Below, in pieces: positions 13,023-59,452 of a stretch of DNA of 64,000 nucleotides (positions within the stretch are counted from its first letter, which is position 1; the number at the start of each line of letters is the position of its first letter). The stretch spans positions 4,946-68,945 of the forward strand of contig JAMFRO010000093.1 of NCBI GenBank assembly GCA_026224825.1, read 5' to 3'. The translations under genes and the position numbers were made by a program. The DNA is from a bacterium. GTDB taxonomy: Bacteria > Pseudomonadota > Alphaproteobacteria > Acetobacterales > Acetobacteraceae. Under the pieces are notes generated by a model. That model had not been told where the DNA came from and did not search any database. It was given only the letters and a program-made list of their open reading frames with translations.

Positions 13023-15620
13023 TCATTTTTGCGCATGTCCGTCCTTGTTGAGCTCGTCCCGCAATTCATACAGCGCGTCCAGCGCCTCGCGCGGGGTCAT
13101 GGCATCCGGATTGAGCATGGCCAGGCGCAGCCGCAATGCCTCCTCGGAAGCCGAGACCGGCACTTCGATAGAGGCGAATAATGGCAGCGGAGAGGTTGCG
13201 GAAAGGTTGCGCTCGGCCGTTTTAAGCAGCATTTCCGCGCGTTTGGCGATGGTTTCCGGCACGCCGGCCAGCCTGGCCACATGCACGCCCCAGCTCTTCT
13301 GCGCCGCACCCTCGACCACCTCGTGCATGAACACGACCTCTCCCCGGAACTCTTTCACCCGCATCGTATGGGCTTTGAGCCGTGGCAATGCTTCGGTGAG
13401 CTGCGTTAATTCATGAAAATGTGTGGCAAATATGGCGCGGCAGCGGTTGCTGTTATGCAGGCTCTCCAGCACGGCCTGGGCAATGGCCAGACCATCCCGC
13501 GTGCCGGTGCCGCGGCCGATCTCATCGACGATGACGAAGCTGCGCGGCCCGGCCTGGTGCAGGATCGCCGCTGTCTCGATCATCTCGACCATGAAGGTGG
13601 AGCGGCCGGAGGCGAGGTCATCCGCCGCGCCCACGCGGGAGAACAGCCGGTCCACCAGGCCGAGGCGCATGGCATCCGCCGGCACCGGCAGCCCGGCCTG
13701 GGCCAGTATCACCAGCAGCGCGTTCTGGCGCAGGTAGGTGGATTTACCGGCCATGTTCGGCCCGGTGAGCAGCATGAGCCGCTGATGCGCGGAAAGCTCG
13801 CAGGCATTGGGGATGAAGCCCACACCCGGCGGGAGGGCGGCTTCGACCACGGGGTGGCGGCCGGATTCGATGTGGAACTCCGCATCCGCGCTCAGCTCCG
13901 GGCAGCAGAACCGGCCGGAGAGGGCGAGCTGCGCGGCGGATTGCAGCACATCGGCCAGCGCCAACGCCTCGGCACAGGCGGCCAGAGCCTCGGCCGCCGC
14001 CAGCACCTGTTTCACCAGCCAGGAGAACACCAGTTTTTCGCGCGAAGCTGCCCGCGCGGCGGCCTCCGATATGCGCTGGTCGAGCGTGGATAGCTCGGGG
14101 TGGGTGAAGCGCGCGCCATTGGCCATGCCCTGGCGCAGGATCAGCTCTGGGTTTTCCCGCAGCTTTTCCACGGCCACGGCGGGGGCCTCCAGCACGTAAC
14201 CCAGTTGCGCGTGGTGGCGGATTTTGAGCGAGGCCACGCCATAACGCTGCGCCAGCTCGCTCTGAAACTCGGCGATCACCCTGCGCGTGTCATCACGCAA
14301 CGCCCGCTCGGCATCCAGCTCGGGGTCAAACCCAGCCGCGATTGCCCCGCCATCCTCCAGTTTCAGCGGCGCCGGCTCGGCCAAGGCGCTTTGCAGCGTG
14401 GCCAGCAGCTCCGGTGTCGGGGCCAGAGCCGTGGCGGCTTCATCCAGCAACGCGGTGCCCGGCGGCAGCAATGTTTGCAGTCCCGCCGCCACATCCAGCC
14501 CGGATTTTATCGCCGCCAGATCGCGCGGGCTGGCCCGCCCCAGCGCGATCCGCCCCAAAGCCCGCGCCATATCCGGTGTGCCGCGCAAAGCGTTGCGCAC
14601 CAGCTCGGCCCGCCCGGAATCCCGTAACGACAGCCAGGCTGCCTGCCGCGCCAGCAGCGGCTCCAACTGGCACAAGGGCGCGGTAATCCACGATGCCAGC
14701 TTGCGCGCACCCGCAGGGCTCACCGTGCGCTTCACCGAACCCAGCAAACTCCCCGCCTCGGTGCCACCACGCGCGGATACCAGCTCCAGGCTCGCGCGCG
14801 TCGCCGCATCCATCGCCAGCCGCCCCGCCACACCGGCACTGGCTGGGTGGGAGAGCCGGGGCATAGCCCCCATCTGTGTGGCCGCGATGTAGCCCAGCAC
14901 CTGCGCCGCAGCCAAAGTCTCAGCGGCGGAGAAATCGCCAAACGCCTCCAGACTCGCCGCACCGAATTTCAGCGCCAGCTCCCGCCTTGCCGCCTCGGCC
15001 GATGCAGGCACCGCCATGGCGAGCCGCCCGGTGCTCACCCGGCGCGCCGTGAACCCGCCCAACTCCACGCTTTCAGGTGCCAGAATCTCAGCCGGGTCCA
15101 GCCGCCCCAGAATCGCCCCCAACCCCGCCGCATCCGTTGCCTCGGTCTCGAAAAGCCCGGTGGAAATATCGGCCCATGCTACACCAAGCGAAGAACCCTC
15201 CACCGCCACAGCCAACAGAAAATTAGCCCGCCCAGCCTCCAGCAGCGACTCCTCAGTCAGCGTCCCCGGCGTCACCAGCCGCACCACATCCCGCGCCAAA
15301 GGCCCCTTCGCTCCCCGCGCCTTGGCCGCCGCCGGATCCTCCATCTGCTCAACAATCGCCACCCGGAACCCGCGCCGGATCAGCCGCGCCAGATACATCT
15401 CAGCCTGCGAAACCGGCACCCCGCACATGGATACAGGCTGCCCCTGATGCGAACCCCGCGCCGTCAGCGCGATATCCAAAGCCGCACTCGCCGCCTGCGC
15501 ATCCGCAAAGAACAACTCGTAAAAATCGCCCATGCGAAAAAACAGCAAAGCATCCTCATGCCTCGCCTTAATGGCAAACCACTGCGCCATCGCCGGCGAT
15601 GCCCCTGCTGCGTCATTCAT
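13023..15620 (-). CDS. mutS: DNA mismatch repair protein MutS
   Basis: PAMAQWFAIKARHEDALLFFRMGDFYELFF N-terminus and Walker A TGPNMAGKST. Start placed at MNDAAG (ATG 15620). The 95-aa upstream extension of the 960-aa ORF runs through a repeat element. Confidence 0.9.
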   Translation of the reverse strand: MNDAAGASPAMAQWFAIKARHEDALLFFRMGDFYELFFADAQAASAALDIALTARGSHQGQPVSMCGVPVSQAEMYLARLIRRGFRVAIVEQMEDPAAAKARGAKGPLARDVVRLVTPGTLTEESLLEAGRANFLLAVAVEGSSLGVAWADISTGLFETEATDAAGLGAILGRLDPAEILAPESVELGGFTARRVSTGRLAMAVPASAEAARRELALKFGAASLEAFGDFSAAETLAAAQVLGYIAATQMGAMPRLSHPASAGVAGRLAMDAATRASLELVSARGGTEAGSLLGSVKRTVSPAGARKLASWITAPLCQLEPLLARQAAWLSLRDSGRAELVRNALRGTPDMARALGRIALGRASPRDLAAIKSGLDVAAGLQTLLPPGTALLDEAATALAPTPELLATLQSALAEPAPLKLEDGGAIAAGFDPELDAERALRDDTRRVIAEFQSELAQRYGVASLKIRHHAQLGYVLEAPAVAVEKLRENPELILRQGMANGARFTHPELSTLDQRISEAAARAASREKLVFSWLVKQVLAAAEALAACAEALALADVLQSAAQLALSGRFCCPELSADAEFHIESGRHPVVEAALPPGVGFIPNACELSAHQRLMLLTGPNMAGKSTYLRQNALLVILAQAGLPVPADAMRLGLVDRLFSRVGAADDLASGRSTFMVEMIETAAILHQAGPRSFVIVDEIGRGTGTRDGLAIAQAVLESLHNSNRCRAIFATHFHELTQLTEALPRLKAHTMRVKEFRGEVVFMHEVVEGAAQKSWGVHVARLAGVPETIAKRAEMLLKTAERNLSATSPLPLFASIEVPVSASEEALRLRLAMLNPDAMTPREALDALYELRDELNKDGHAQK

Positions 15621-15640
15621 GCGCCGGATAAAGCCACAGC

Positions 15641-15777
15641 AGGGAAGGAAGGCCAAGGGGCTTCGCCCCGTCGTGCGAATGCACGCCTCCGGCGTGACGA
15701 CCCCCACCAAGGGCCGAAGGGCCCTTGGATCCCACCCGGCATAGTAAAGGGGGGGAGGCCCCCTGGCCTTTTTCCTT
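15641..15777. repeat. palindromic mosaic element, copy E (core-less solo form)
   Basis: Terminal inverted AAGGAAGGCC / GGCCTTTTTCCTT. GC hairpins ggggcttcgcccc and gggggggaggccccc. Contains the 32-nt gtcgtgcgaatgcacgcctccggcgtgacgac motif and the caagggccgaagggcccttg hairpin, both shared with copies B, C and D. Confidence 0.7.
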
Positions 15778-15786
15778 GCTAAGGCT

Positions 15787-16347
15787 TTACCCGGCGATGA
15801 AGCCGCGCGGGCGGGGCCAGAACAAACCAGCGCGGGTGCGGTAGGCGGCGTAGGCGGCGGCGAGTTCGGAGTTGGCAAATTTGCGTTCCTCGCGGGTCGC
15901 TGCATCCAGGTACAGGGTTGTCATGATGGCTGGTGCCAGCCAGCCGGCGAGGCTGGGGGTGGCTATGGCGGTGCCGAACCAGAACAGCACGTAGGCCAGA
16001 TAGAACGGGTGGCGCACGTAGCGGTAGGGGCCGTGGTTGAGCAGGAAGTTCGGGCTGTCGTTGTCATAGGCGAGCGTTGGCGGTGTGCTGCGGCTGGCGA
16101 TGATGGCCGAGGCGAAGACCGCGAGCGAGGCCGTGAAGAGCACGAGGGCCGGGAGCCAAAGGCTGGAGGCGCCGTAGTGCAGGTGCCAGAGGAAGGCGAT
16201 GAACAGCGCGGTTGAGAGGCCGGTGGTGAGTTTCATGCCGGGTGGCATGTCGCCGGTGGAGCGGAAATGCGCTTTCACGCCCCAGCCGAAGGCGGCGAAG
16301 CAGATGGTGGCGTCAAAACCGGTGAGGATGGAAAAAAGAACGTGCAT
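15787..16347 (-). CDS. isoprenylcysteine carboxyl methyltransferase (ICMT/PEMT) family membrane methyltransferase
   Basis: Polytopic 186-aa protein with the family core HGPYRYVRHPFYLAYVLFWFG ... REERKFANSELAAAYAAYRTR. Confidence 0.7.
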   Translation of the reverse strand: MHVLFSILTGFDATICFAAFGWGVKAHFRSTGDMPPGMKLTTGLSTALFIAFLWHLHYGASSLWLPALVLFTASLAVFASAIIASRSTPPTLAYDNDSPNFLLNHGPYRYVRHPFYLAYVLFWFGTAIATPSLAGWLAPAIMTTLYLDAATREERKFANSELAAAYAAYRTRAGLFWPRPRGFIAG

Positions 16348-20326: not shown

Positions 20327-21100
20327 ATGAAAATCAGCTTCGTCGTCCCCGCCTATAATGAGCAGGTCCTGCTGCCCCGCTCCCTGCAAGCCATACGCGA
20401 TGAAATCGCGCGCGCTGGCCAGGTTCTGGGGCAGGATGCCGAGATCATCGTGGTGAACAATGCCAGTACGGACAACACGCGCGAGGTTGCATCCTCCATC
20501 GAGGGCGTGCGGGTGGTGGACGAACCCCGCAAGGGGCTGGTGCAGGCGCGCTGGTGCGGTTTCGCCCACTCCACCGGCGATCTCATCGCCAATATCGATG
20601 CCGATACCATCATCCCCCCCGGCTGGCTCACCGAGGTGCTGCGCCAGTTCGCGCGCACCCCCAAGCTGGTCGGTCTGTCCGGGCCATACGAATATTACGG
20701 CGTGCCGAAGCGGGTGAACCTGGTCGTCGGCGCCTATTACCACGCCGCCTGGCTGGCCTATGTCATCAACCACTACCTGCTCAACGTCGGCGCCATGCTC
20801 CAGGGCGGCAATTTCGTGGTCAAACGCGAGGCCATGCTGAAACTCGGCAACCCGGACCTGCGCTTCTCCTTCTATGGCGAAGACACCGACATGGCCAACC
20901 GCCTCTCCAAGGTCGGCCGCGTCATCTTCACCTTCCGCCTGCCAGCCCAATCCTCCGGCCGCCGCCTGGTCGGCGAAGGCGTGTTCACCATCGGCCTGCG
21001 CTACACCATGAACTTCATCTGGGCCACCTTCCGCAAACGCCCGTTCACCGAAGAATGGCAAGACATCCGCGAAGAGCCGGTTAAGGGCGGGGTGGTTTAA
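20327..21100 (+). CDS. glycosyltransferase family 2
   Basis: MKISFVVPAYNEQ start, NNASTDNT, and DAD motif (IANIDADTI). The last roughly 8 codons lie inside the terminal inverted repeat of element A. Confidence 0.8.
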   Translation: MKISFVVPAYNEQVLLPRSLQAIRDEIARAGQVLGQDAEIIVVNNASTDNTREVASSIEGVRVVDEPRKGLVQARWCGFAHSTGDLIANIDADTIIPPGWLTEVLRQFARTPKLVGLSGPYEYYGVPKRVNLVVGAYYHAAWLAYVINHYLLNVGAMLQGGNFVVKREAMLKLGNPDLRFSFYGEDTDMANRLSKVGRVIFTFRLPAQSSGRRLVGEGVFTIGLRYTMNFIWATFRKRPFTEEWQDIREEPVKGGVV

Positions 21101-21103
21101 AGG

Positions 21104-21125
21104 AAAAAGGCTGGGGCTCCGCCCC
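21104..21125 (-). terminator. candidate intrinsic terminator at the left end of element A (reads on the minus strand)
   Basis: Minus strand reads ggggcggagcccc followed by agccTTTTTcc. Confidence 0.4.
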
Positions 21126-21299
21126 TGACCCCGCTGGGGCCGCAGGCCCCAGACCCCTAGACTTTAAGGATATGAGAGAGGGGGGAATGCGCCCCATAGG
21201 TTTGTGAACATTGTTCACAAACCTATGGGGCGCATTCCCCCCTCTCTCATATCCTTTTAAAAGCTAATGGGGGTCCGGGGCCTGCGGCCCCGGCGGGTC

Positions 21300-21322
21300 C
21301 AGGGCAGAGCCCTGGCCTTTTT
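21300..21322 (+). terminator. candidate intrinsic terminator at the right end of element A
   Basis: cagggcagagccctg followed by gccTTTTTcc. Confidence 0.4.
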
Positions 21323-21341
21323 CCTTTAAACCACCCCGCCC

Positions 21342-22427
21342 CTAACCAGCTTTGCGCGGTTGTGCCTTGGGTTCGGCGACGGTCCATGCGGGGGTGGATT
21401 GGAGGGCTGGGCGGGCGGCGAGCCGGCTGGTTACGAACCACCAGCGGAAGAGCAGGTTTTCCAGCAATGTGCGGCGGCGGAAGCGCGGGCAGCGCAGGGC
21501 TGCGAGTTTGGCGCTGAGCCCGCCTTGCAGCCCGGCCTGCACCAGGCGCAGGTCTTGGCGTGCCTGTGGGGTCAGGCGCCCGGCCTGCTCCTCCAGCATA
21601 TCGGCATGGCGGTGCATCATGGTCATGTACACCATCGGCCCGCGCTGCAGTGCCGCCAGCGCGCGGAGGTGCAGCGGCTGGGCTCGGCCGATGAGGTTAT
21701 GCTTATGCAGCCGGTACAGTACCTGCGGCCGCTCATCGAATATTATGCGCCCGCCGCAGGCGGCGACCACGATATAGCTCCACCAATCATGCACGCTGCC
21801 GGCGGGATAGCCTGAAGTGGCCACCAGAGCGGCGGCGGTGGCGTTCATCACCAGCGTGTTGCCATTGGCGATATTCTGCGTCAGGCAGGCCGGAAACCCC
21901 GGCTGGTGGTCGTGCAGAATGGACAGATGCGCGCCGCCCAGATTCTCATCCACCAGATATTGCCGGGCGCAGTACAGCGCCGGCGCCTCACCGGCAGCTT
22001 CCAGCAGGGTAACGGCGTTGTCGAGTTTTTCCGGCAACCAGACATCGTCCTGATCGGCGAAAGCCACGGCCTCGGTGCCCAGCGTTTCGGACAGAAGGGC
22101 GAGAAAACTGCGTGCGGCCCCCAGATGCGGGCCGGAGGAGGTGGATTTAATGCAGCGCTGCGCCCCGATTTTCAGCGCAAAATCCCCCATGATGCTCAGC
22201 GTCTCGTCGGTCGAGCCATCGTCGCGCCAGTGCAGCACCCAGTTCTCATGGGTCTGCGCCAGAAAACTGTTCAACTGGGCATGCAGGAAGCGTTCGCCAT
22301 TATAGGTGGAGAGCAGAATGGCGACGGTGGTCGCCGGATGATGGGGCACGACCGGCAGCATCAACAGCAGCCCGCTGGCACGGCGCCGGGCGGGTGTCCG
22401 GCCGTGGACAGAAGGCGAAGCTGACAA
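21342..22427 (-). CDS. glycosyltransferase family 2 (rhamnosyltransferase-like)
   Basis: VAILLSTYNGERFLHAQLNSFLAQTHENWVLHWRDDGSTDET and ADQDDVW (DxD). The start may be the internal MLPVVPHH. Confidence 0.8.
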   Translation of the reverse strand: MSASPSVHGRTPARRRASGLLLMLPVVPHHPATTVAILLSTYNGERFLHAQLNSFLAQTHENWVLHWRDDGSTDETLSIMGDFALKIGAQRCIKSTSSGPHLGAARSFLALLSETLGTEAVAFADQDDVWLPEKLDNAVTLLEAAGEAPALYCARQYLVDENLGGAHLSILHDHQPGFPACLTQNIANGNTLVMNATAAALVATSGYPAGSVHDWWSYIVVAACGGRIIFDERPQVLYRLHKHNLIGRAQPLHLRALAALQRGPMVYMTMMHRHADMLEEQAGRLTPQARQDLRLVQAGLQGGLSAKLAALRCPRFRRRTLLENLLFRWWFVTSRLAARPALQSTPAWTVAEPKAQPRKAG

Positions 22428-29975: not shown

Positions 29976-30806
29976 ATGCGCGATTTTCGCGATGCCAAAG
30001 CCATGGCCCAGACCCTACGTGATAGTTTGAACAGCAAAACCGCCCCCATCAGCCCCCCCATCAGCCATAGTGAAAGCCTGGAGCTGGTCTCCAAAATGCT
30101 GGGACTGCAGGATTGGAATACATTATCGGCTCTGCTCCAGGCTGGGCAGCAGGAACCTTCAACCATAAAGCACCCGCAGGACACCGCCAGCTATCCAGCC
30201 ATTCCCGTGCGGGATTTCGTGCCATTTCCGGGGAGCTATTTTCCGCTTTTCATAGGGCGCGAGAAGACCAAGCAGGCGCTTGACCGCGCGTTTGCAAGCC
30301 ACCGCGAGGTGGTGCTTGCCGTGCAGCGGGATGAGTCCGTCGATGAGCCGGGCCAAGGCGATATTTACGAGCTCGGCGTGCTCGCCACCGTGATGGAGCT
30401 GCAGCGGCTGCCGGATGGCGTCGAGATTTTAGGCAAAACGCTTAACGCCGCAATGAAAATCATGCTGATGGCCACAAGGCGCGTCGCCATCCGCAAATTC
30501 ACGGGCGGGGCGGGGGCTTACCAGGCCGAAATCACGAATATCAGCGAGGGGCCGATTCCCGATGCGCTTGAACTCATTAGAAAGGCACTGGAAGGTTTCG
30601 AAGCCTATGCGGCAAAACACGATCTGGATATGCAGCGAATCCGTTCGACCATTGGTCAAAGCGACCCCGGACGGGTGGCGGACGTTATTTGTGCATTTGT
30701 AACGCTCCCGATCAACGACAAGCAGAGTTTGCTTGCCACACTCGACCCTGTAGCGCGGCTGGAAAAAATCATTGCCCTCATGGAGCGCAACCTGGCAACC
30801 GTTTGA
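29976..30806 (+). CDS. LON N-terminal (substrate-binding) domain protein with an extra N-terminal helical module
   Basis: IPVRDFVPFPGSYFPLFIGREKTKQALDRA...VLAVQRD...DIYELGVLATVMELQRLPDG matches the Lon N-domain pattern. No AAA+ or protease domain. The first roughly 55 aa (MRDFRDAKAMAQTLRDSL...SESLELVSKMLGLQDWNTLSA) form a module I recall from glyoxalase-superfamily proteins. Confidence 0.7.
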   Translation: MRDFRDAKAMAQTLRDSLNSKTAPISPPISHSESLELVSKMLGLQDWNTLSALLQAGQQEPSTIKHPQDTASYPAIPVRDFVPFPGSYFPLFIGREKTKQALDRAFASHREVVLAVQRDESVDEPGQGDIYELGVLATVMELQRLPDGVEILGKTLNAAMKIMLMATRRVAIRKFTGGAGAYQAEITNISEGPIPDALELIRKALEGFEAYAAKHDLDMQRIRSTIGQSDPGRVADVICAFVTLPINDKQSLLATLDPVARLEKIIALMERNLATV

Positions 30807-31036
30807 GGCGGGGGTGTTTCCACGGAAAAGGCCAGGGCTCTGCCCTGGACCCGCCAAGGGCCGAAAGGCCCTTGGATCCCGTAACTTAAGAATTGAAAAG
30901 GGCCCTGCCACCTAGCTGTTTTAACAGCTGGATGGCAGGGCCCTTTTCAATTCTTAAAAGCTAATGGGGGTCTGGGGCCTCAGGCCCCAGCGGGTCCAGG
31001 GCAGAGCCCTGGCCTTTTCCGTGGAAACACCCCGCC
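30807..31036. repeat. palindromic mosaic element, copy B (outer modules plus core type 2)
   Basis: Termini GGCGGGG(G)TGTTTCCACGGAAAAGGCCAGGGCTCTGCCCTGG are inverted at both ends. Core has perfect 25-bp arms, 30886..30910 / 30933..30957 (ttaagaattgaaaagggccctgcca). The element starts right after the TGA of the left gene and ends right before the TAA of the right gene. Confidence 0.9.
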
Positions 31037-32134
31037 TTAAAACAAATCGCCCAAATGCCGGTGGTGATTTGTATCGATGCTGATCTCCGTGCTCATCCCC
31101 GCCAGCAGCGGCAAATCAGCCGGACCGGAGAGAACCCGGATCCGCACCGGAATGCGCTGCACCACCTTCACCCAGTTTCCGGAAGAATTCTGCGCCGGCA
31201 GAATGGCGAATTCCGAGCCCGATGCCGGGGAAACACTCTCCACCTCGCCCTTCCATGTCTGGCCCGGATAGGTATCCACCGTAATGGTCACGCTCTGCCC
31301 CGGGCGCACCCAGGTAAGCTGGTCTTCCTTGGGCTGCGCGGTGATGAACACATCCTGGTCCGAGACCAGCCCGAAGGCGGCGGTGCCGGCCAGCAGGAAC
31401 ATGCCCGGCTGCAACTGCTCCACCTGCGTCACCGTGCCGGAGAACGGCGCCTTCACCACGGAATGGTCGAGATTGCGCTGCGCATCGCGCAGATCCGCAT
31501 CGGCCTGCTGGTATTCGGGCGTATCCTCGGGCTTGATGTCCGGATTGCCCTGCAGTTTCGTCAACTGCTGCCTTGCCGCCTGGTCAAGCTGGGTAAGATG
31601 CTGTTGGTCGGCTTCCAGCGTAAAGCGCGCATCGTCATATTGCGCGCGTGTCGCCCCACCTTTGGCCACCACGGCGGCATAGCGGGCGAGGTCGGCCTGG
31701 TCCTTCTCCACCTGCACCTTGGCCATCTCCACCTGTGCCGCGGCCTGGGCGTAGCTGTGCCTGGCGCCGTTTATGCTCTCAACCGATTGCGCCAGCGCCG
31801 CCTGGGCGCGCTCAACCGCTGTCTGATATGTTTCCTGGCCGATGCTGAACAGCGGCTGCCCCGCCGCCACATGCTGGTTATCCTTCACGTAAACCTGGTC
31901 CACCAGCCCGGATACATCCGTGGAGAGCGAGACCTTCGCGGCATCGACATAAGAATCATCGGTGGAGATGGTGGCACCGCCGCCCAGCCACATGAAAAAT
32001 GCCACCAGCAGCACGGCCAGCACGCCGCCGATCATCAACACCGGGCGCAGCAGCCGGCTGCGATTCACCCGGTTTACCGCGGCAAGCCCCGCACCGGCGT
32101 CCTGTTCCCGCCCCACAATATTCGCCTGCGACAT
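31037..32134 (-). CDS. HlyD/EmrA-family membrane fusion protein
   Basis: N-terminal TM, a long coiled-coil, and barrel motifs (TDDSYVDAAKVSLSTDVSGLV, APFSGTVT). Typical EmrA layout. Confidence 0.85.
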   Translation of the reverse strand: MSQANIVGREQDAGAGLAAVNRVNRSRLLRPVLMIGGVLAVLLVAFFMWLGGGATISTDDSYVDAAKVSLSTDVSGLVDQVYVKDNQHVAAGQPLFSIGQETYQTAVERAQAALAQSVESINGARHSYAQAAAQVEMAKVQVEKDQADLARYAAVVAKGGATRAQYDDARFTLEADQQHLTQLDQAARQQLTKLQGNPDIKPEDTPEYQQADADLRDAQRNLDHSVVKAPFSGTVTQVEQLQPGMFLLAGTAAFGLVSDQDVFITAQPKEDQLTWVRPGQSVTITVDTYPGQTWKGEVESVSPASGSEFAILPAQNSSGNWVKVVQRIPVRIRVLSGPADLPLLAGMSTEISIDTNHHRHLGDLF

Positions 32135-41695: not shown

Positions 41696-43429
41696 ATGGC
41701 TTCAACCACCTACGCCAGCCGTCATTCTGACGCCCCCACCTATTCCGGCCCGGACGATTTCGCGGCCCTCCTCGATGCCGCACTCGGTGCCGGCGCCGGG
41801 TTCGAAGGCTCCGTCGTCTCCGGCATCGTGCTCCGGATCGACGACGATTTCGTCATCGTCGATGTCGGCCTGAAATCCGAAGGCCGCGTCCCCCTCCGCG
41901 AATTCGCGCCCGTCGGCGCCCGTCCGGAAATCAACGCCGGCGATGTCTTCGACCTCTATATTGAGCGTTACGAAGACAAAGACGGCTCCATGGTGCTTTC
42001 CCGCGAGAAAGCCCGCCGTGAAGAGAGCTGGACCCAGCTTGAGAAGGCTTTTGAAGCCCAGACCCGCGTCAACGGCGTCATCCACGGCCGCGTCAAAGGC
42101 GGCTTCACGGTGGACCTCGGCGGCGCCACCGCGTTCCTGCCCGGTTCGCAGGTCGATATCCGCCCGGTCCGCGACGTCGGCCCCCTCATGGGCGTGTCCC
42201 AGCCCTTCCAGATCCTCAAAATGGACCGTCAGCGCGGCAATATCGTGGTCTCGCGCCGCGCCGTGCTGGAGGAAACCCGTGCGGAACAGCGCAGCGAGCT
42301 GATCCATGGCCTCAAGGAAGGCCAGATCCTCGACGGCGTGGTCAAGAACATCACCGATTACGGTGCGTTCGTGGACCTCGGCGGCGTGGACGGCCTGTTG
42401 CACGTCACCGACATCGCCTGGAAGCGCATCAACCACCCGGCCGAGGCCCTGGTCATCGGCCAGCCCGTCAAGGTGCAGGTCATCCGCTTCAATGCCGACA
42501 CCCAGCGTATCTCGCTCGGCATGAAGCAGCTCGAAGCCGATCCCTGGGAAGGCGTCGACGCCAAGTACCCGCCCGGCATCAAGGCCTCCGGCCGTGTCAC
42601 CAACATCACCGATTACGGCGCCTTCGTGGAGCTGGAAGCCGGCGTTGAAGGTCTCGTGCACGTCTCCGAAATGTCCTGGACCAAGAAGAACGCCCATCCC
42701 GGCAAGATCGTCTCCACTTCGCAGGAAGTCGACGTGGTTGTTCTCGATGTCGACGCCTCCAAGCGCCGCATCAGCCTTGGCCTGAAGCAGGTTGCCCGTA
42801 ATCCTTGGGAGGAGTTCCAGGACGAGCACCCGATCGGCTCCGAAGTCGAAGGCGAAATCCGCAACATCACCGAGTTCGGCCTGTTCGTGGCCGTCGGCGC
42901 GGAAATCGACGGCATGATCCACATGTCCGACCTCTCCTGGGAAGAAGCCGGCGAGGCCGCCATCGCGAAGTTCGAGAAGGGCGGCATCGTCAAAGCCAAG
43001 GTGCTCGACATCGACGTTGAGAAAGAGCGCATCTCGCTCGGCATCAAGCAGCTCGAAGTCGATCCCGCCGCCGGCGTGCTGGACAAGGTCCACAAGAACC
43101 AGATCGTCACCTGCGTGGTTACCGCCGTGCAGAGCAATGGCGTCGAGGTTAAGGTGGACGACGTGCTGACCGGCTTCATCCGCCGCGCCGAACTGGCGCG
43201 CGACAAAGCCGAGCAGCGCCCCGAGCGCTTCGCCATCGGCGATACAATCGACGCCAAGATCACGGCCGTCGACCGCGCCGCCCGCAAGCTCCAGCTCACC
43301 ATCAAGGGCAAGGAAATCGACGAGGACAAGCACGCCATCACCGAATACGGCTCGTCCGACTCGGGTGCTTCCCTCGGCGACATCCTGGGCGCCGCCATCC
43401 GCCGCCGGAACCAGGCGACGGACGAGTAA
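41696..43429 (+). CDS. rpsA: 30S ribosomal protein S1
   Basis: Six S1 (OB-fold) repeats, for example GVVKNITDYGAFVDLGGVDGLLHVTDI. 577 aa. Confidence 0.92.
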   Translation: MASTTYASRHSDAPTYSGPDDFAALLDAALGAGAGFEGSVVSGIVLRIDDDFVIVDVGLKSEGRVPLREFAPVGARPEINAGDVFDLYIERYEDKDGSMVLSREKARREESWTQLEKAFEAQTRVNGVIHGRVKGGFTVDLGGATAFLPGSQVDIRPVRDVGPLMGVSQPFQILKMDRQRGNIVVSRRAVLEETRAEQRSELIHGLKEGQILDGVVKNITDYGAFVDLGGVDGLLHVTDIAWKRINHPAEALVIGQPVKVQVIRFNADTQRISLGMKQLEADPWEGVDAKYPPGIKASGRVTNITDYGAFVELEAGVEGLVHVSEMSWTKKNAHPGKIVSTSQEVDVVVLDVDASKRRISLGLKQVARNPWEEFQDEHPIGSEVEGEIRNITEFGLFVAVGAEIDGMIHMSDLSWEEAGEAAIAKFEKGGIVKAKVLDIDVEKERISLGIKQLEVDPAAGVLDKVHKNQIVTCVVTAVQSNGVEVKVDDVLTGFIRRAELARDKAEQRPERFAIGDTIDAKITAVDRAARKLQLTIKGKEIDEDKHAITEYGSSDSGASLGDILGAAIRRRNQATDE

Positions 43430-43672
43430 AGAAAGGAAGGCGAGGGGGCTTTGCCCCCCTCGACCCCCCACTGGGCCTGAGGCCCAGACCCCATTAGTTT
43501 AAGAACTAAAAAGGGCCCTGCCTCCAAGCTGTTTCAACAGCCGGGGGCAGGGCCCTTTTTAGTTCTTAAGTAGCGGGGGTGTGGGGCCGTCACGCCGAAG
43601 GCGTGCTGCGCACGACGGCCCCACGCGGGGGTTAAGGGGGCAAGGCCCCCTTGCCTTTCTTACTTACTTGCC
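43430..43672. repeat. palindromic mosaic element, copy C (gamma-type outer modules plus core type 2)
   Basis: Starts immediately after the rpsA TAA. Core has perfect 24-bp arms, 43499..43522 / 43546..43569 (ttaagaactaaaaagggccctgcc), homologous to the core of copy B. The right module carries the expanded hairpin ggggccgtcacgccgaaggcgtgctgcgcacgacggcccc. Confidence 0.85.
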
Positions 43673-43744
43673 CGTGCCGGTCCCGGCTTAGGGCGGCCTT
43701 AAGCATTGGCCGTTACTGTGGGGTACGAGCCACGGGAGAGCCAT

Positions 43745-45415
43745 ATGGTTGGGGTGTTCAAATCTGCTGCGGCGCTGAATGCTTTGCGCCAGTCTTTTGC
43801 TGTCATCGAATTTGCGCCGGATGGCACGATTCTGGATTGCAATGCGTTATTCGAGCAGACGATGGGCTATGCGCGCGGCGCGATTGTCGGGCGGCATCAC
43901 CGCATGCTGGTTTCGCCGGATTACGCCAACGCCCCGGAATATACCGATTTCTGGCTCAAGCTGCGGGCTGGCAAGTTCGACACGGGCGAGTACCGCCGCA
44001 TGGCCAAGGGCGGGCGCGAGGTCTGGCTGCAGGCCAGCTACACCCCGGTACGCGGGCGCGGCGGCAAGGTGCTGAAAATCATCAAGCTGGCGCTCGACAA
44101 TACGGCTGCGCACCAGAAGGCGGCGGATGACCAGAGCCTCATCGGCGCCATCTACCGTTCGCAGGCGGTCATCGAGTTCATGCTGGACGGCACCATCATC
44201 CGGGCCAATGATAATTTCCTCAAGGCAGTCGGCTATGAGCGTGATGAGGTTGTCGGCAAAAAACATTCCATGTTCGCCGTACCCGGCTTCGCCGCCAGCG
44301 CCGAATACCGCGATTTCTGGCACAGGCTGAGCCGCGGCGAATTTGTCGTGGGTGAGTTCCACCGCGTCGGCAAAGGCGGGCGCGATGTCTGGCTGCAGGC
44401 CAGTTACAACCCGGTTTACAACGGCGCCGGGCAGATTGTGAAAGTCGTGAAATTCGCCATCGACCTGACCGAGGACATGCGCAATGTCGGGCTCGTCGGC
44501 GATGCTCTGGCCGGCCTTGCGAAAGGTGACCTGACGCTGAATGTGAAGGAAAAGCTTATTCCCTCGATGGAGAAGCTGCGCCTCGATTTCAACGCCTCCT
44601 CGCAATCGATGCGTGAGACCATGACCGCCATTTCCGAATCCGCCGCCATCATCAAGGACAGCGCGGGTGAGGTGAGCAAAACCGCAGACCTGCTCGCCCA
44701 GCGCACCGAGCGCCAGGCTGCTAATTTAGAGGAAACCGCGGCGGCGCTGGACAAGATCACCTCCACCGTACGCAAAACCGCCGAGGGTGCGGCCCAGGTG
44801 CGCGAGGTGGTGCGCAACGCCAAATCCGATACCGATACCTCCGGAATCGTGGTGGCCGAGGCGGTGGAGGCCATGTCGCGCATAGATTCCAGCTCGTCGC
44901 AAATCGCCAATATCATCGGCGTCATCGATGAGATCGCCTTCCAGACCAATCTCCTCGCCCTCAACGCAGGCGTTGAGGCCGCCCGCGCCGGCGATGCCGG
45001 GCGCGGCTTCGCGGTCGTCGCCACCGAGGTGCGCGCGCTCGCCCAACGCTCCGCCGATGCCGCGAAGGAGATCAAAACCCTCATCGCCACCTCCGGCCAG
45101 CAGGTCGCCGCCGGCGTTAAATCCGTGGGCGATGCACGGGCGGCCCTGGAGCGCATCGCCACCCATGTCATCAGCATCAACGATTCCGTCGTCAACATCG
45201 CAACCAGTGCCACCGAACAATCCGACGCGCTGAACCAGGTGAACCAGGCCGTGAACCAGATGGACCAGCTAACCCAGCAAAACGCCGCCATGGTCGAAGA
45301 AGCCGCCGCCGCCGCCCAAAGCCTGGCCAACGAAGCCACCGAAATCACCGAAAAACTAGGCCGCTTCAACACCGGCACAACCCGCCGGGCCGTGCGGGTG
45401 CGGGAGCTGGTTTAA
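43745..45415 (+). CDS. soluble methyl-accepting chemotaxis protein with two PAS domains
   Basis: Duplicated PAS blocks ([18 protein letters not shown] / [18 protein letters not shown], and [11 protein letters not shown] / [11 protein letters not shown]). C-terminal MCP signalling hairpin ([41 protein letters not shown]). No TM segment. Confidence 0.85.
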
Positions 45416-45418
45416 GGG

Positions 45419-45442
45419 AAAAAGGCCAGGGCTCTGCCCTGG
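45419..45442 (-). terminator. candidate intrinsic terminator at the left end of element D (minus strand)
   Basis: Minus strand reads ccagggcagagccctgg followed by ccTTTTTcc. Confidence 0.4.
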
Positions 45443-45640
45443 ACCCGCCGGGGCCTGAGGCCCCGGACCCCCATTAGCTTTTAGTGGGATAATGAGAGAG
45501 GGGGCGATACGCACCCCAGATCGTGGAGCTATTCCACGACCTGGGGTGCGTATCGCCCCCTCTCTCATTATCCCAAAAGTCTAGGGGTCTGGGGCCGTCA
45601 CGCCGGAGGCGTGCTTCGCACGACGGCCCCAGCGGGGTCA

Positions 45641-45662
45641 GGGGCGGAGCCCCAGCCTTTTT
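45641..45662 (+). terminator. candidate intrinsic terminator at the right end of element D
   Basis: ggggcggagcccc followed by agccTTTTTcc. Confidence 0.4.
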
Positions 45663-45665
45663 CCC

Positions 45666-45917
45666 TTAAAGCGCCTCCGACCCCGGCACCACCGGGCGGC
45701 TTTCGCGGCTACCGCGCATGCGTTTGTCGGGTTCTTTGGGGTCGTTAGGGGAGATTTCCACGTAGTCGTCGAACACGGCGAGGATGGTGCCGACGAAGGG
45801 GAAGTCGCCGAGTTCGGGCACGCGGTAGCTTACGGTATCACCTGGTTTGAAGGTGTCCGGGTTGAAGTTGAATTCGAACGGGCAGGCTTCACCCGCGGTT
45901 TGTCCCAAGTTTTGCAT
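45666..45917 (-). CDS. hypothetical small protein
   Basis: MQNLGQTAGEACPFEFNFNPDTFKPGDTVSYRVPELGDFPFVGTILAVFDDYVEISPNDP... No family recognised. Its stop lies inside the element D terminus. Confidence 0.4.
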   Translation of the reverse strand: MQNLGQTAGEACPFEFNFNPDTFKPGDTVSYRVPELGDFPFVGTILAVFDDYVEISPNDPKEPDKRMRGSRESRPVVPGSEAL

Positions 45918-59321: not shown

Positions 59322-59443
59322 CTTCTTTTTGTGAACAAAAAGAAGCAAAAAAACTTTATCCTTGGGGGCATGGGCTGTGGCCCCACCACAGCCCATGCCC
59401 CGAGTAATAAAAGTTTTTGGTGTCGCTTTTTTCAAAAAGCGAC
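59307..59443. repeat. stack of four consecutive hairpins downstream of uvrA
   Basis: (1) aagaagt-a-acttctt, spanning the TAA. (2) cttcttttt-gtgaac-aaaaagaag. (3) A perfect 16-bp stem, ggggcatgggctgtgg / ccacagcccatgcccc (59365..59401), nested in aaaaactttat/ataaaagttttt. (4) gtcgcttttt-tc-aaaaagcgac (59422..59443). Confidence 0.7.
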
Positions 59444-59452
59444 TGCTTTTTC

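Follow-up and report, generated by a model that had tools for sequence, protein, structure and literature searches.

REP and REPIN sequences are GC-rich extragenic palindromes that carry a GTAG or CGTC tag, occur as inverted doublets, and are accompanied by a RAYT (Y1/HUH transposase) gene flanked by repeats. RIMEs and the Sinorhizobium Sm repeats are alphaproteobacterial, non-coding elements of about 100–200 nt that contain several palindromic blocks. We know of no description of an exchangeable apical module for RIMEs. MITEs with TA or TTAA target duplications include the Correia elements and IS630-derived MITEs, and nested insertions are known. An ordinary Rho-independent terminator is a single-copy hairpin of 20–40 nt. 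The attC site of integrons is an imperfect palindrome that is bounded by RYYYAAC and GTTRRRY core sites and occurs in arrays next to an integrase. CGTC repeats have been reported missing in the Acetobacteraceae (PMC3733652), and RIMEs are mentioned in PMC2873474. Template switching homogenises and extends inverted repeats (PMC5941160, PMC8794818).

The 64-kb stretch of DNA analysed here, designated the window, contains five copies of a palindromic element, every one intergenic. The copies belong to a dispersed, lineage-patchy, modular gene-end repeat family with a variable central slot. Like REP, BIME, and REPIN sequences, the elements are high-copy GC-rich extragenic hairpins that lie mostly at gene 3′ ends, as singletons and as head-to-head pairs. 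The mosaic combination with short motifs and the patchy distribution among related genomes are also shared. However, the unit is composed of two hairpins and is about 60 nt long, whereas the classical REP is a single hairpin of 20–40 nt. The GTAG or CGTC tag of REPs is replaced by an inner end that reads GTAGCGGGG in some units and GTAAT, GTTAT, GGAAT, GCTAAT, or GTCTAG in others, and the linker is nearly unique to each unit. The spacer between units is a long, perfectly paired, and replaceable hairpin, unlike that of REPs and BIMEs. In a tblastn search of 1.4 Mb, a tiny fraction of each genome, an approximate E. coli RayT-like probe found no match in the window or the Acetobacteraceae loci, and its sole match was at the unrelated locus L146. 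The elements resemble RIMEs in being alphaproteobacterial intergenic palindromic mosaics without coding capacity. RIMEs belong to another lineage and are set apart here by description, not by sequence.

Architecture of the composite element

Each composite is sequentially composed, from the outside inwards, of an outer arm beginning at the stop codon, a GC hairpin, the motif ACCCGC, a variable second hairpin, a linker, and the centre. The outer arm reads TRA-GGGCGGGGyG-TTT..-GGAAAAAGG. The GC hairpin is of type X (CCAGGGC-nnn-GCCCTGG), Y, or Z, and the linker between the second hairpin and the centre is GACCCCCATTAGC or GACCCCTAGAC. The repeating two-hairpin unit can be written as AAGG-CCAGGGCnnnGCCCTGG-ACCCGC-variable hairpin-GACCCCATT. 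The whole composite is about 190–270 nt long, and the 72-nt palindrome that first drew attention to the locus is its apical module.

The preliminary description placed all copies in one common outer scaffold, which is too simple in two respects. The outer hairpin differs (X, Y, or Z), and the plus strand of copy A corresponds to the minus strand of copy D; aligned in this way, the two scaffolds are nearly identical. The outer layer, in the form TAA-GGGCGGGGyG-TTT..GGAAAAAGG, recurs in five related loci (L124, L126, L163, L190, and L191) and thus belongs to the element in this clade. The notion that the outer arms of copies A and B are unique flanks made symmetric in situ was largely withdrawn.

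A small palindromic module of about 28 nt, GTCACGCC..GGCGTGC..GCACGAC, is present in copies C (43589–43616), D (45597–45624), and F (15670–15698). It occupies the loop of the second hairpin in C (the right-hand one) and D, and lies beside or inside the X hairpin elsewhere. Its consensus, GTCAYGCS..SGCRTGC..GCRCGAC, consists of two overlapping small hairpins bounded by (C)GTC...GAC(G), and the module is also found in L042, L060, L078, L086, L092, L105, L119, and L163. It is a further nested palindromic insert, loosely reminiscent of CGTC-tagged REPs.

Five copies at gene ends in the window

A covariance model built on the two-hairpin unit matches exactly the eight half-units of copies A–D and, weakly, positions 15679–15737 in copy F. 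Stop codons adjoin all five copies, and copies A, B, and D lie between convergent genes. The window ORFs that were scanned with protein-family libraries (positions 1–20 kb and the genes beside the elements) are housekeeping genes. The RpsA protein of the window is 92–94% identical to Acidocella proteins, indicating that the source organism is a relative of Acidocella.

Copy A (21080–21347) is a composite palindrome between two convergent glycosyltransferase genes. Its left arm is of type Y, its right arm is of type X/P, and it carries core 1. The outer arm of this copy encodes the last codons and the stop of the glycosyltransferase gene at 20327–21100, after a 1-nt length difference. The C-terminus of the product (window 21041–21100) reads ...DIREEPVKGGVV, while the orthologs in L188 and L190 end in ...DIREELS.

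Copy B (30801–31043) lies between a convergent LON-domain gene (stop 30804–30806) and an EmrA-like gene (stop 31037–31039) and carries core 2. Its layers are the outer arms GAGGCGGGGGTGTTTCCACGGAAAAGG, X hairpins at 30832–30848 and 30996–31012, second hairpins, linkers, and the core. An inverted-repeat scan finds 54-nt arms that are 93% complementary. The whole 243-nt copy folds into one long stem with three branches, with an energy of −211.7 kcal/mol as RNA (z = −20) and −125.7 kcal/mol as DNA (z = −19).

Copy C (43430–43662) is located immediately 3′ of the rpsA stop codon (43427–43429) and upstream of an MCP gene. Its outer hairpins are of type Z, and core 2 is at 43499–43569. Copy D (45411–45669) lies between the MCP gene (stop 45413–45415) and a small convergent ORF, whose stop is inside 45666–45669, and carries core 1 at 45485–45575. 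The PAS-MCP gene (43706–45415) is thus bracketed by C and D, the right halves of which are direct repeats. In L127 and L128 (11783–11890), rpsA is followed directly by yceI.

Copy F (15640–15786) is a core-less scaffold with one second hairpin, situated between a PEMT-like gene (stop 15787–15789) and mutS. A mechanically called ORF of 960 aa on the minus strand (13023–15905) reads through this copy. With the start placed near 15620, the MutS domains begin at residue 9, which indicates that the real mutS gene is shorter and that copy F lies upstream of it. This scaffold is most likely the core-less copy that the preliminary description had called E. The cluster at 59322–59450 consists of three AT-flanked hairpins directly 3′ of uvrA, of which a 47-nt piece recurs at 89% identity in L163 (461–507). 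It was rejected as a family member: it has only TTTGTGAACA in common with core 1, where this sequence is in the tip in copy A. The cluster is a second, unrelated gene-end repeat family.

Terminator-like features

Shortly after the stop codons, each strand of the elements presents a GC-rich stem-loop with a T-run behind it, which matches the sequence criteria of a bidirectional intrinsic terminator. An X hairpin plus CCTTTT(T)CC was flagged on the far side of the copies, on both strands in B and on one strand each in C and D. Core 2 itself can be read in the same manner, as AAAAGGGCCCTGCC...GGCAGGGCCCTTTT. In other genomes the tail after X is CCTTCCTT, a poor U-tract, and half elements have a T-rich tail on the strand opposite the adjacent gene.

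The simplest forms are found at sites orthologous to B and A, in L126 and L190, respectively. Both are a single hairpin, AAAAAAGGCCAGG..CCTGGCCTTTTT, that is, a plain A-run/GGCCAGG-stem/T-run structure. These minimal forms agree exactly with a bidirectional terminator: immediately 3′ of the stops, each strand has a GC stem between an A-run and a T-run. The elements as a whole differ from ordinary terminators in that they are dispersed repeats of 190–270 nt with three to five nested hairpins. Judged by sequence, they most likely serve as two-way intrinsic terminators or as structures protecting 3′ ends. Because plain terminator hairpins occupy the same sites in relatives, the composite looks like an elaboration of such a terminator. 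The minimal forms could equally have arisen from composites through a deletion between the two X copies.

Perfect arms of the core hairpins

The core arms were measured with an exact-arm script and an inverted-repeat scan. Core 1 of copy A (21166–21256) has perfect 45-nt arms at 21166–21210 and 21212–21256, separated by a 1-nt loop. The arms of core 1 of copy D, at 45485–45519 and 45541–45575, pair perfectly over 35 nt, one more than the 34 bp given earlier. Core 2 of copy B (30886–30957) has perfect 25-nt arms at 30886–30910 and 30933–30957, and core 2 of copy C has perfect 24-nt arms at 43499–43522 and 43546–43569. Perfect hairpins with arms of at least 14 nt occur at a mean of 0.1 per shuffle in 50 dinucleotide-preserving shuffles of the window, so that the palindromes, as originally reported, are real.

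Core 1 of A and D contains ATGAGAGAGGGGG. Core 2 of B and C reads TTAAGAAyTrAAAAGGGCCCTGCC; in copy B it consists of TTAAGAATTGAAAAGGGCCCTGCC, an asymmetric 22-nt tip, and the mirror image, with a GC stem between an A-run and a T-run on either strand. The assignment of A and D to one core type and of B and C to another holds for the window. Two types are an undercount for the family, in which at least eight kinds of insert occur.

Both cores are attached at the same point of the scaffold, as had been proposed, since the linker CATTAGCTTTTA precedes core 1 and core 2 alike. The junctions after the linker read ...CATTAGCTTTTAAGAATTG on the minus strand of B, ...CATTAGCTTTTAAAAGGATATGAGAG on the minus strand of A, and ...CATTAGCTTTTAGTGGGATAATGAGAG in D. 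TTAA is found on either side of core 2 in B and C, and TTTAA/TTTTAA bounds core 1 in A. The TTAA-like boundaries claimed for all cores are absent from D, where the sequences are TTTTAG and AAAAG.

The cores of A and D are identical at 32 of 46 positions (~70%). Despite this divergence, each core remains self-complementary, with 45 of 45 positions paired in A and 42 of 43 in D. The preliminary description offered recent copying as one cause of the perfect arms, and the divergence of these two cores argues against it. Differences between B and C in the core-2 stem are likewise mirrored on both arms. An alignment of eight core-2 copies has few variable columns, an indel misaligning two of the rows, and the asymmetric tip is conserved among the eight.

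The elements resemble the products of template switching in their perfect arms of differing sequence, their mirrored changes, an interior inverted between the window and L191, and a symmetry that extends into the flanks. The published process acts on any inverted repeat (PMC5941160, PMC8794818), whereas the elements here form a repeat family. Correction of one arm by the other is likely a better explanation of the perfect arms than base-by-base selection or recent copying. Strong selection on pairing could likewise maintain perfect arms, which counts against the preferred mechanism set out below.

Selection on pairing would be expected if the composite or its core had a specific trans-acting role, as a structured RNA gene or as a regulatory site bound by a protein. 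The fold is extremely stable and the core-2 tip is conserved in all eight copies despite its asymmetry, both consistent with such a role. The second hairpin also shows strong covariation, with 45 distinct stem sequences and perfect pairing in 104 of 136 cases. Its single mismatches, counted for units in related loci on the strand reading from gene to element, comprise 14 A.C and 5 G.T, so that wobble appears to be tolerated mainly on one strand (weak, ~p = 0.06). This excess may be a weak hint of an RNA-level constraint on the opposite strand, on which the hairpins precede the T-rich tail. A trans-acting role is nevertheless very unlikely. The centre can be replaced by unrelated sequences, and close Acidocella genomes have ordinary terminators, and not the element, at the corresponding positions. 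The gathering score was not reached by any Rfam family in the window or in ten related loci, and the matches at E ≤ 1 were all to generic hairpin models, among them miRNA precursors and a plastid 3′UTR.

Combinations of cores and scaffolds

The metagenome scan for core 2 was made with the stem alone, allowing any tip and irrespective of a scaffold. It gave 53 matches, of which 47 are unrelated plain terminators of other organisms. The remaining six, in L135, L160, L161, L163, L173, and L175, are true core-2 copies and are all scaffold-borne. Together with B and C, none of eight core-2 copies lies outside a scaffold. A narrow motif search of ~0.8 Mb of scaffold-bearing loci also found no scaffold-free core.

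Core 2 is joined to at least four different arm/linker types, with an outer hairpin of type X, Y, or Z. The P arm (CATTAGCTTTTA) is combined with core 1 in A and D and with core 2 in B, L161, and L163. In B itself and in L173, the left arm of B is attached to core 2. An arm 98% identical to it in L005 carries a core-1-like hairpin, and in L089 the same arm type borders an empty centre. Since the same arm types are found with core 1, core 2, other cores, or nothing, the elements are mosaics and not fixed subfamilies.

These combinations bear on the simplest alternative, in which core and scaffold descend together without exchange and the two cores mark two diverged subfamilies. It was to be accepted if cores never occurred independently and always co-varied with one scaffold subtype; the first part holds and the second does not. 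Copies A and D are indeed alike in both core type and scaffold type, and no core was found alone. The two contexts of the P arm, the three contexts of the left arm of B, and the different core families at the orthologous A site of the window and L124 make descent in plain subfamilies very improbable.

The preliminary description also considered a palindromic element nested in another element. In the most explicit form of this idea, the cores would be MITE-like non-autonomous transposons moved in trans by a DDE transposase, IS630/Tc1-like or IS5-like, that duplicates TA or TTAA, and the scaffold would be an older MITE. Such an enzyme would prefer TTAA at the scaffold dyad. The elements resemble MITEs in being short palindromic non-coding repeats, and core 2 and some core-1 relatives have TTAA or TA where they join the scaffold. 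Empty scaffold centres read ..AC|TTAA|GT.. in ~10 of 19 cases, with TAAG, CTAG, or TTAG in others. Seven of eight core-2 copies are bounded by TTAA on both sides (..TTAA-GAATTG...CAATTC-TTAA..). The core-1 relatives in L086 and L094 read ..TTTTA|GACAGTTG...CAACTGTC|TAAG.., which fits a TA duplication inside TTAA. The occurrence of the 28-nt module at several different positions is consistent with nested insertion as well. In addition, a core-1-like hairpin without a scaffold is present on L004, a contig of the viral collection, but its homology to core 1 is unproven, L004 being a 70%-GC contig of unknown origin.

The same junctions fit equally well a palindrome AAG...CTT inserted exactly at the dyad TT|AA, and A and D have no duplication. 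MITEs disperse to unrelated targets, whereas core 2 lies in the scaffold dyad in eight of eight copies, and no core was free of a scaffold in the ~0.8 Mb of scaffold-bearing loci. A TTAA duplication at the outer ends of the whole element was examined and rejected: the outer ends, unlike those of such MITEs, are generally without TTAA, which is found near them in 14 of 145 units only. No transposase gene was found among the window ORFs scanned (1–20 kb and the genes beside the elements) or in the syntenic loci of relatives. Because core 2 is scaffold-bound in every copy and no transposase was found, independent nested transposition is not shown, and nested MITEs are an unlikely explanation.

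An integron-type cassette slot was also rejected. The boundaries are TTAAGAATTG / CAATTCTTAA or TTTTAG / AAAAG, and the copies are scattered singly between housekeeping genes. No integrase was found among the window ORFs scanned or in the relatives' syntenic loci.

Orthologous sites in relatives

At the B site of L126, the orthologous gene pair is 83% identical and separated by 66 nt. The spacer has the outer arms of B and, between an A-run and a T-run, a single X hairpin. In a BLAST alignment, the single hairpin aligns to both X copies of B, so that the difference between the two sites is exactly window 30849–30995.

The A site exists in several states. The window has the composite with core 1. 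In L191 (glycosyltransferase protein 88% identical) the site holds a composite with an inverted interior and a core-1-like start. L188 (86%) has a 20-nt spacer without an element, L187 (86%) has no element and an extra gene at this place, and L190 (84%) has the single-hairpin minimal form. The more distant L124, in which a LON-domain ortholog on the same contig is 73% identical, carries a composite with a hairpin of the core-2 family; this hairpin is 71% identical to that of B, compared with a null maximum of 55%. The different states at one site among relatives show that centres turn over. The slot with interchangeable content that had been suggested is supported to this extent, by empty centres, at least eight kinds of filled centre, and one orthologous gene pair with differing states. 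Among the loci compared, no pair was found in which the same scaffold is filled in one genome and empty in the other at an orthologous site.

A comparison of L191 (1412–1511) with window 21080–21347 reveals that the arm beside the same 361-aa glycosyltransferase gene is of type Y in L191 and of type X/P in the window, which places the interior of the element in opposite orientations in the two organisms.

At the C and D sites, relatives with 92–94% identical RpsA have an ordinary terminator after rpsA, and the two-hairpin unit is absent from ~140 kb of their syntenic sequence. The C-like element of L135 (1–330) has 90% identity to C, compared with 80% for the flanking genes. It is fused directly to the right flank of D, and the MCP gene is missing. 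As several relatives also have an MCP gene after rpsA, its loss in L135 fits a deletion between C and D.

A copy in L163 is 91% identical to B over 195 nt, outer arms included, and is located between a non-orthologous convergent gene pair. The match spans the outer arms at non-orthologous loci, indicating that the whole composite is copied.

Distribution in the Acetobacteraceae

The X-unit pattern occurs in at least 118 genome stretches, nearly all from Acetobacteraceae among the matches listed. Of 140 units, 88 have the end of an ORF (≥100 codons) no more than 45 nt outside X; at random positions, the proportion is 13%. Of 159 units, 74 have no partner within 480 nt. About 70 inverted pairs were found, spanning 63–236 nt. 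Roughly 25 of the pairs, with spans of 90–128 nt, have an empty centre that is often CTTAAG. The filled pairs contain at least eight kinds of central insert, including core-1 relatives (GACAGTTGTTATGAGAGGGGGGTGAGG...), other terminator-like hairpins, and a non-palindromic insert of ~110 nt.

The ~110-nt centre has a conserved TGGCGAAGCC block and is present in many scaffolds of other Acetobacteraceae MAGs (L007 4019–4218, L008 1787–1969, L025 3106–3305, L052 982–1180, L062 7247–7443, and L037 5631–5838), with a variant in L009, L115, and L116. No Rfam family matches this centre, which may represent a small RNA or a further passenger module.

The plasmid collection yielded a sole match, a weak half-unit on a Rhodovastum plasmid directly 3′ of a gene's stop codon. 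Three matches came from viral contigs: a scaffold with a third core type in L005, the scaffold-less hairpin of L004, and one unrelated terminator. No tRNA or tmRNA was found in the window or beside the lone L004 hairpin.

Short-read contigs of the same or close organisms end inside elements, as seen in L001 (Logan, 1746 nt) and L191 (1511 nt). Assemblies are thus fragmented, and copy numbers in MAGs will be underestimated.

Discussion

The elements are probably REP/BIME-like mosaic repeats that were elaborated from gene-end terminator hairpins, are copied whole, exchange their tips, and owe their symmetry to templating of one arm by the other. The composite would have grown from a plain bidirectional terminator hairpin, and whole composites are copied from locus to locus. 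The slot lies at the dyad, often TTAA, and its content changes over time. Tips may be replaced when copies with common scaffold arms recombine or undergo gene conversion, or when a module inserts at the apex. An arm may be corrected or copied from the other arm through intrastrand template switching, or through repair in a hairpin or cruciform. The presence of TTAA on both sides of core 2 in seven of eight copies weighs against this mosaic-repeat account, as it fits transposition at least as well as recombination.

A more speculative and rather doubtful proposal is that a dedicated process, aimed at hairpin loops or at the dyad, acts on the hairpin apex and adds or exchanges palindromic modules there, terminators growing in layers and swapping tips. 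It could consist of an HUH-type single-strand enzyme that attacks extruded loops, of small circles integrating at the X hairpin, or of programmed template switching. If true, the fast-diverging symmetric cores in near-identical scaffolds would be the footprint of a new palindrome-specific mobility rather than of ordinary recombination.

No published description of the family was found in the literature searched by sequence string and keyword. In the Acetobacteraceae it forms a large and apparently undescribed family, which belongs to a well-known class of intergenic repeats in bacteria and does not represent a new type of system. The elements break short-read assemblies, two contigs of related organisms ending inside one. 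They also create false long ORFs and rewrite gene ends, as in the changed C-terminus of the glycosyltransferase in the window. Copies are associated with rearrangement, the MCP gene being present or absent between C and D. At orthologous sites, the mosaic repeats document a series of states, beginning with sites that lack a hairpin, continuing with a plain terminator, and ending with composites whose tips differ. Cores with ~30% divergence that nevertheless remain self-complementary provide a natural test case that sets templated correction against selection on pairing for long bacterial hairpins.
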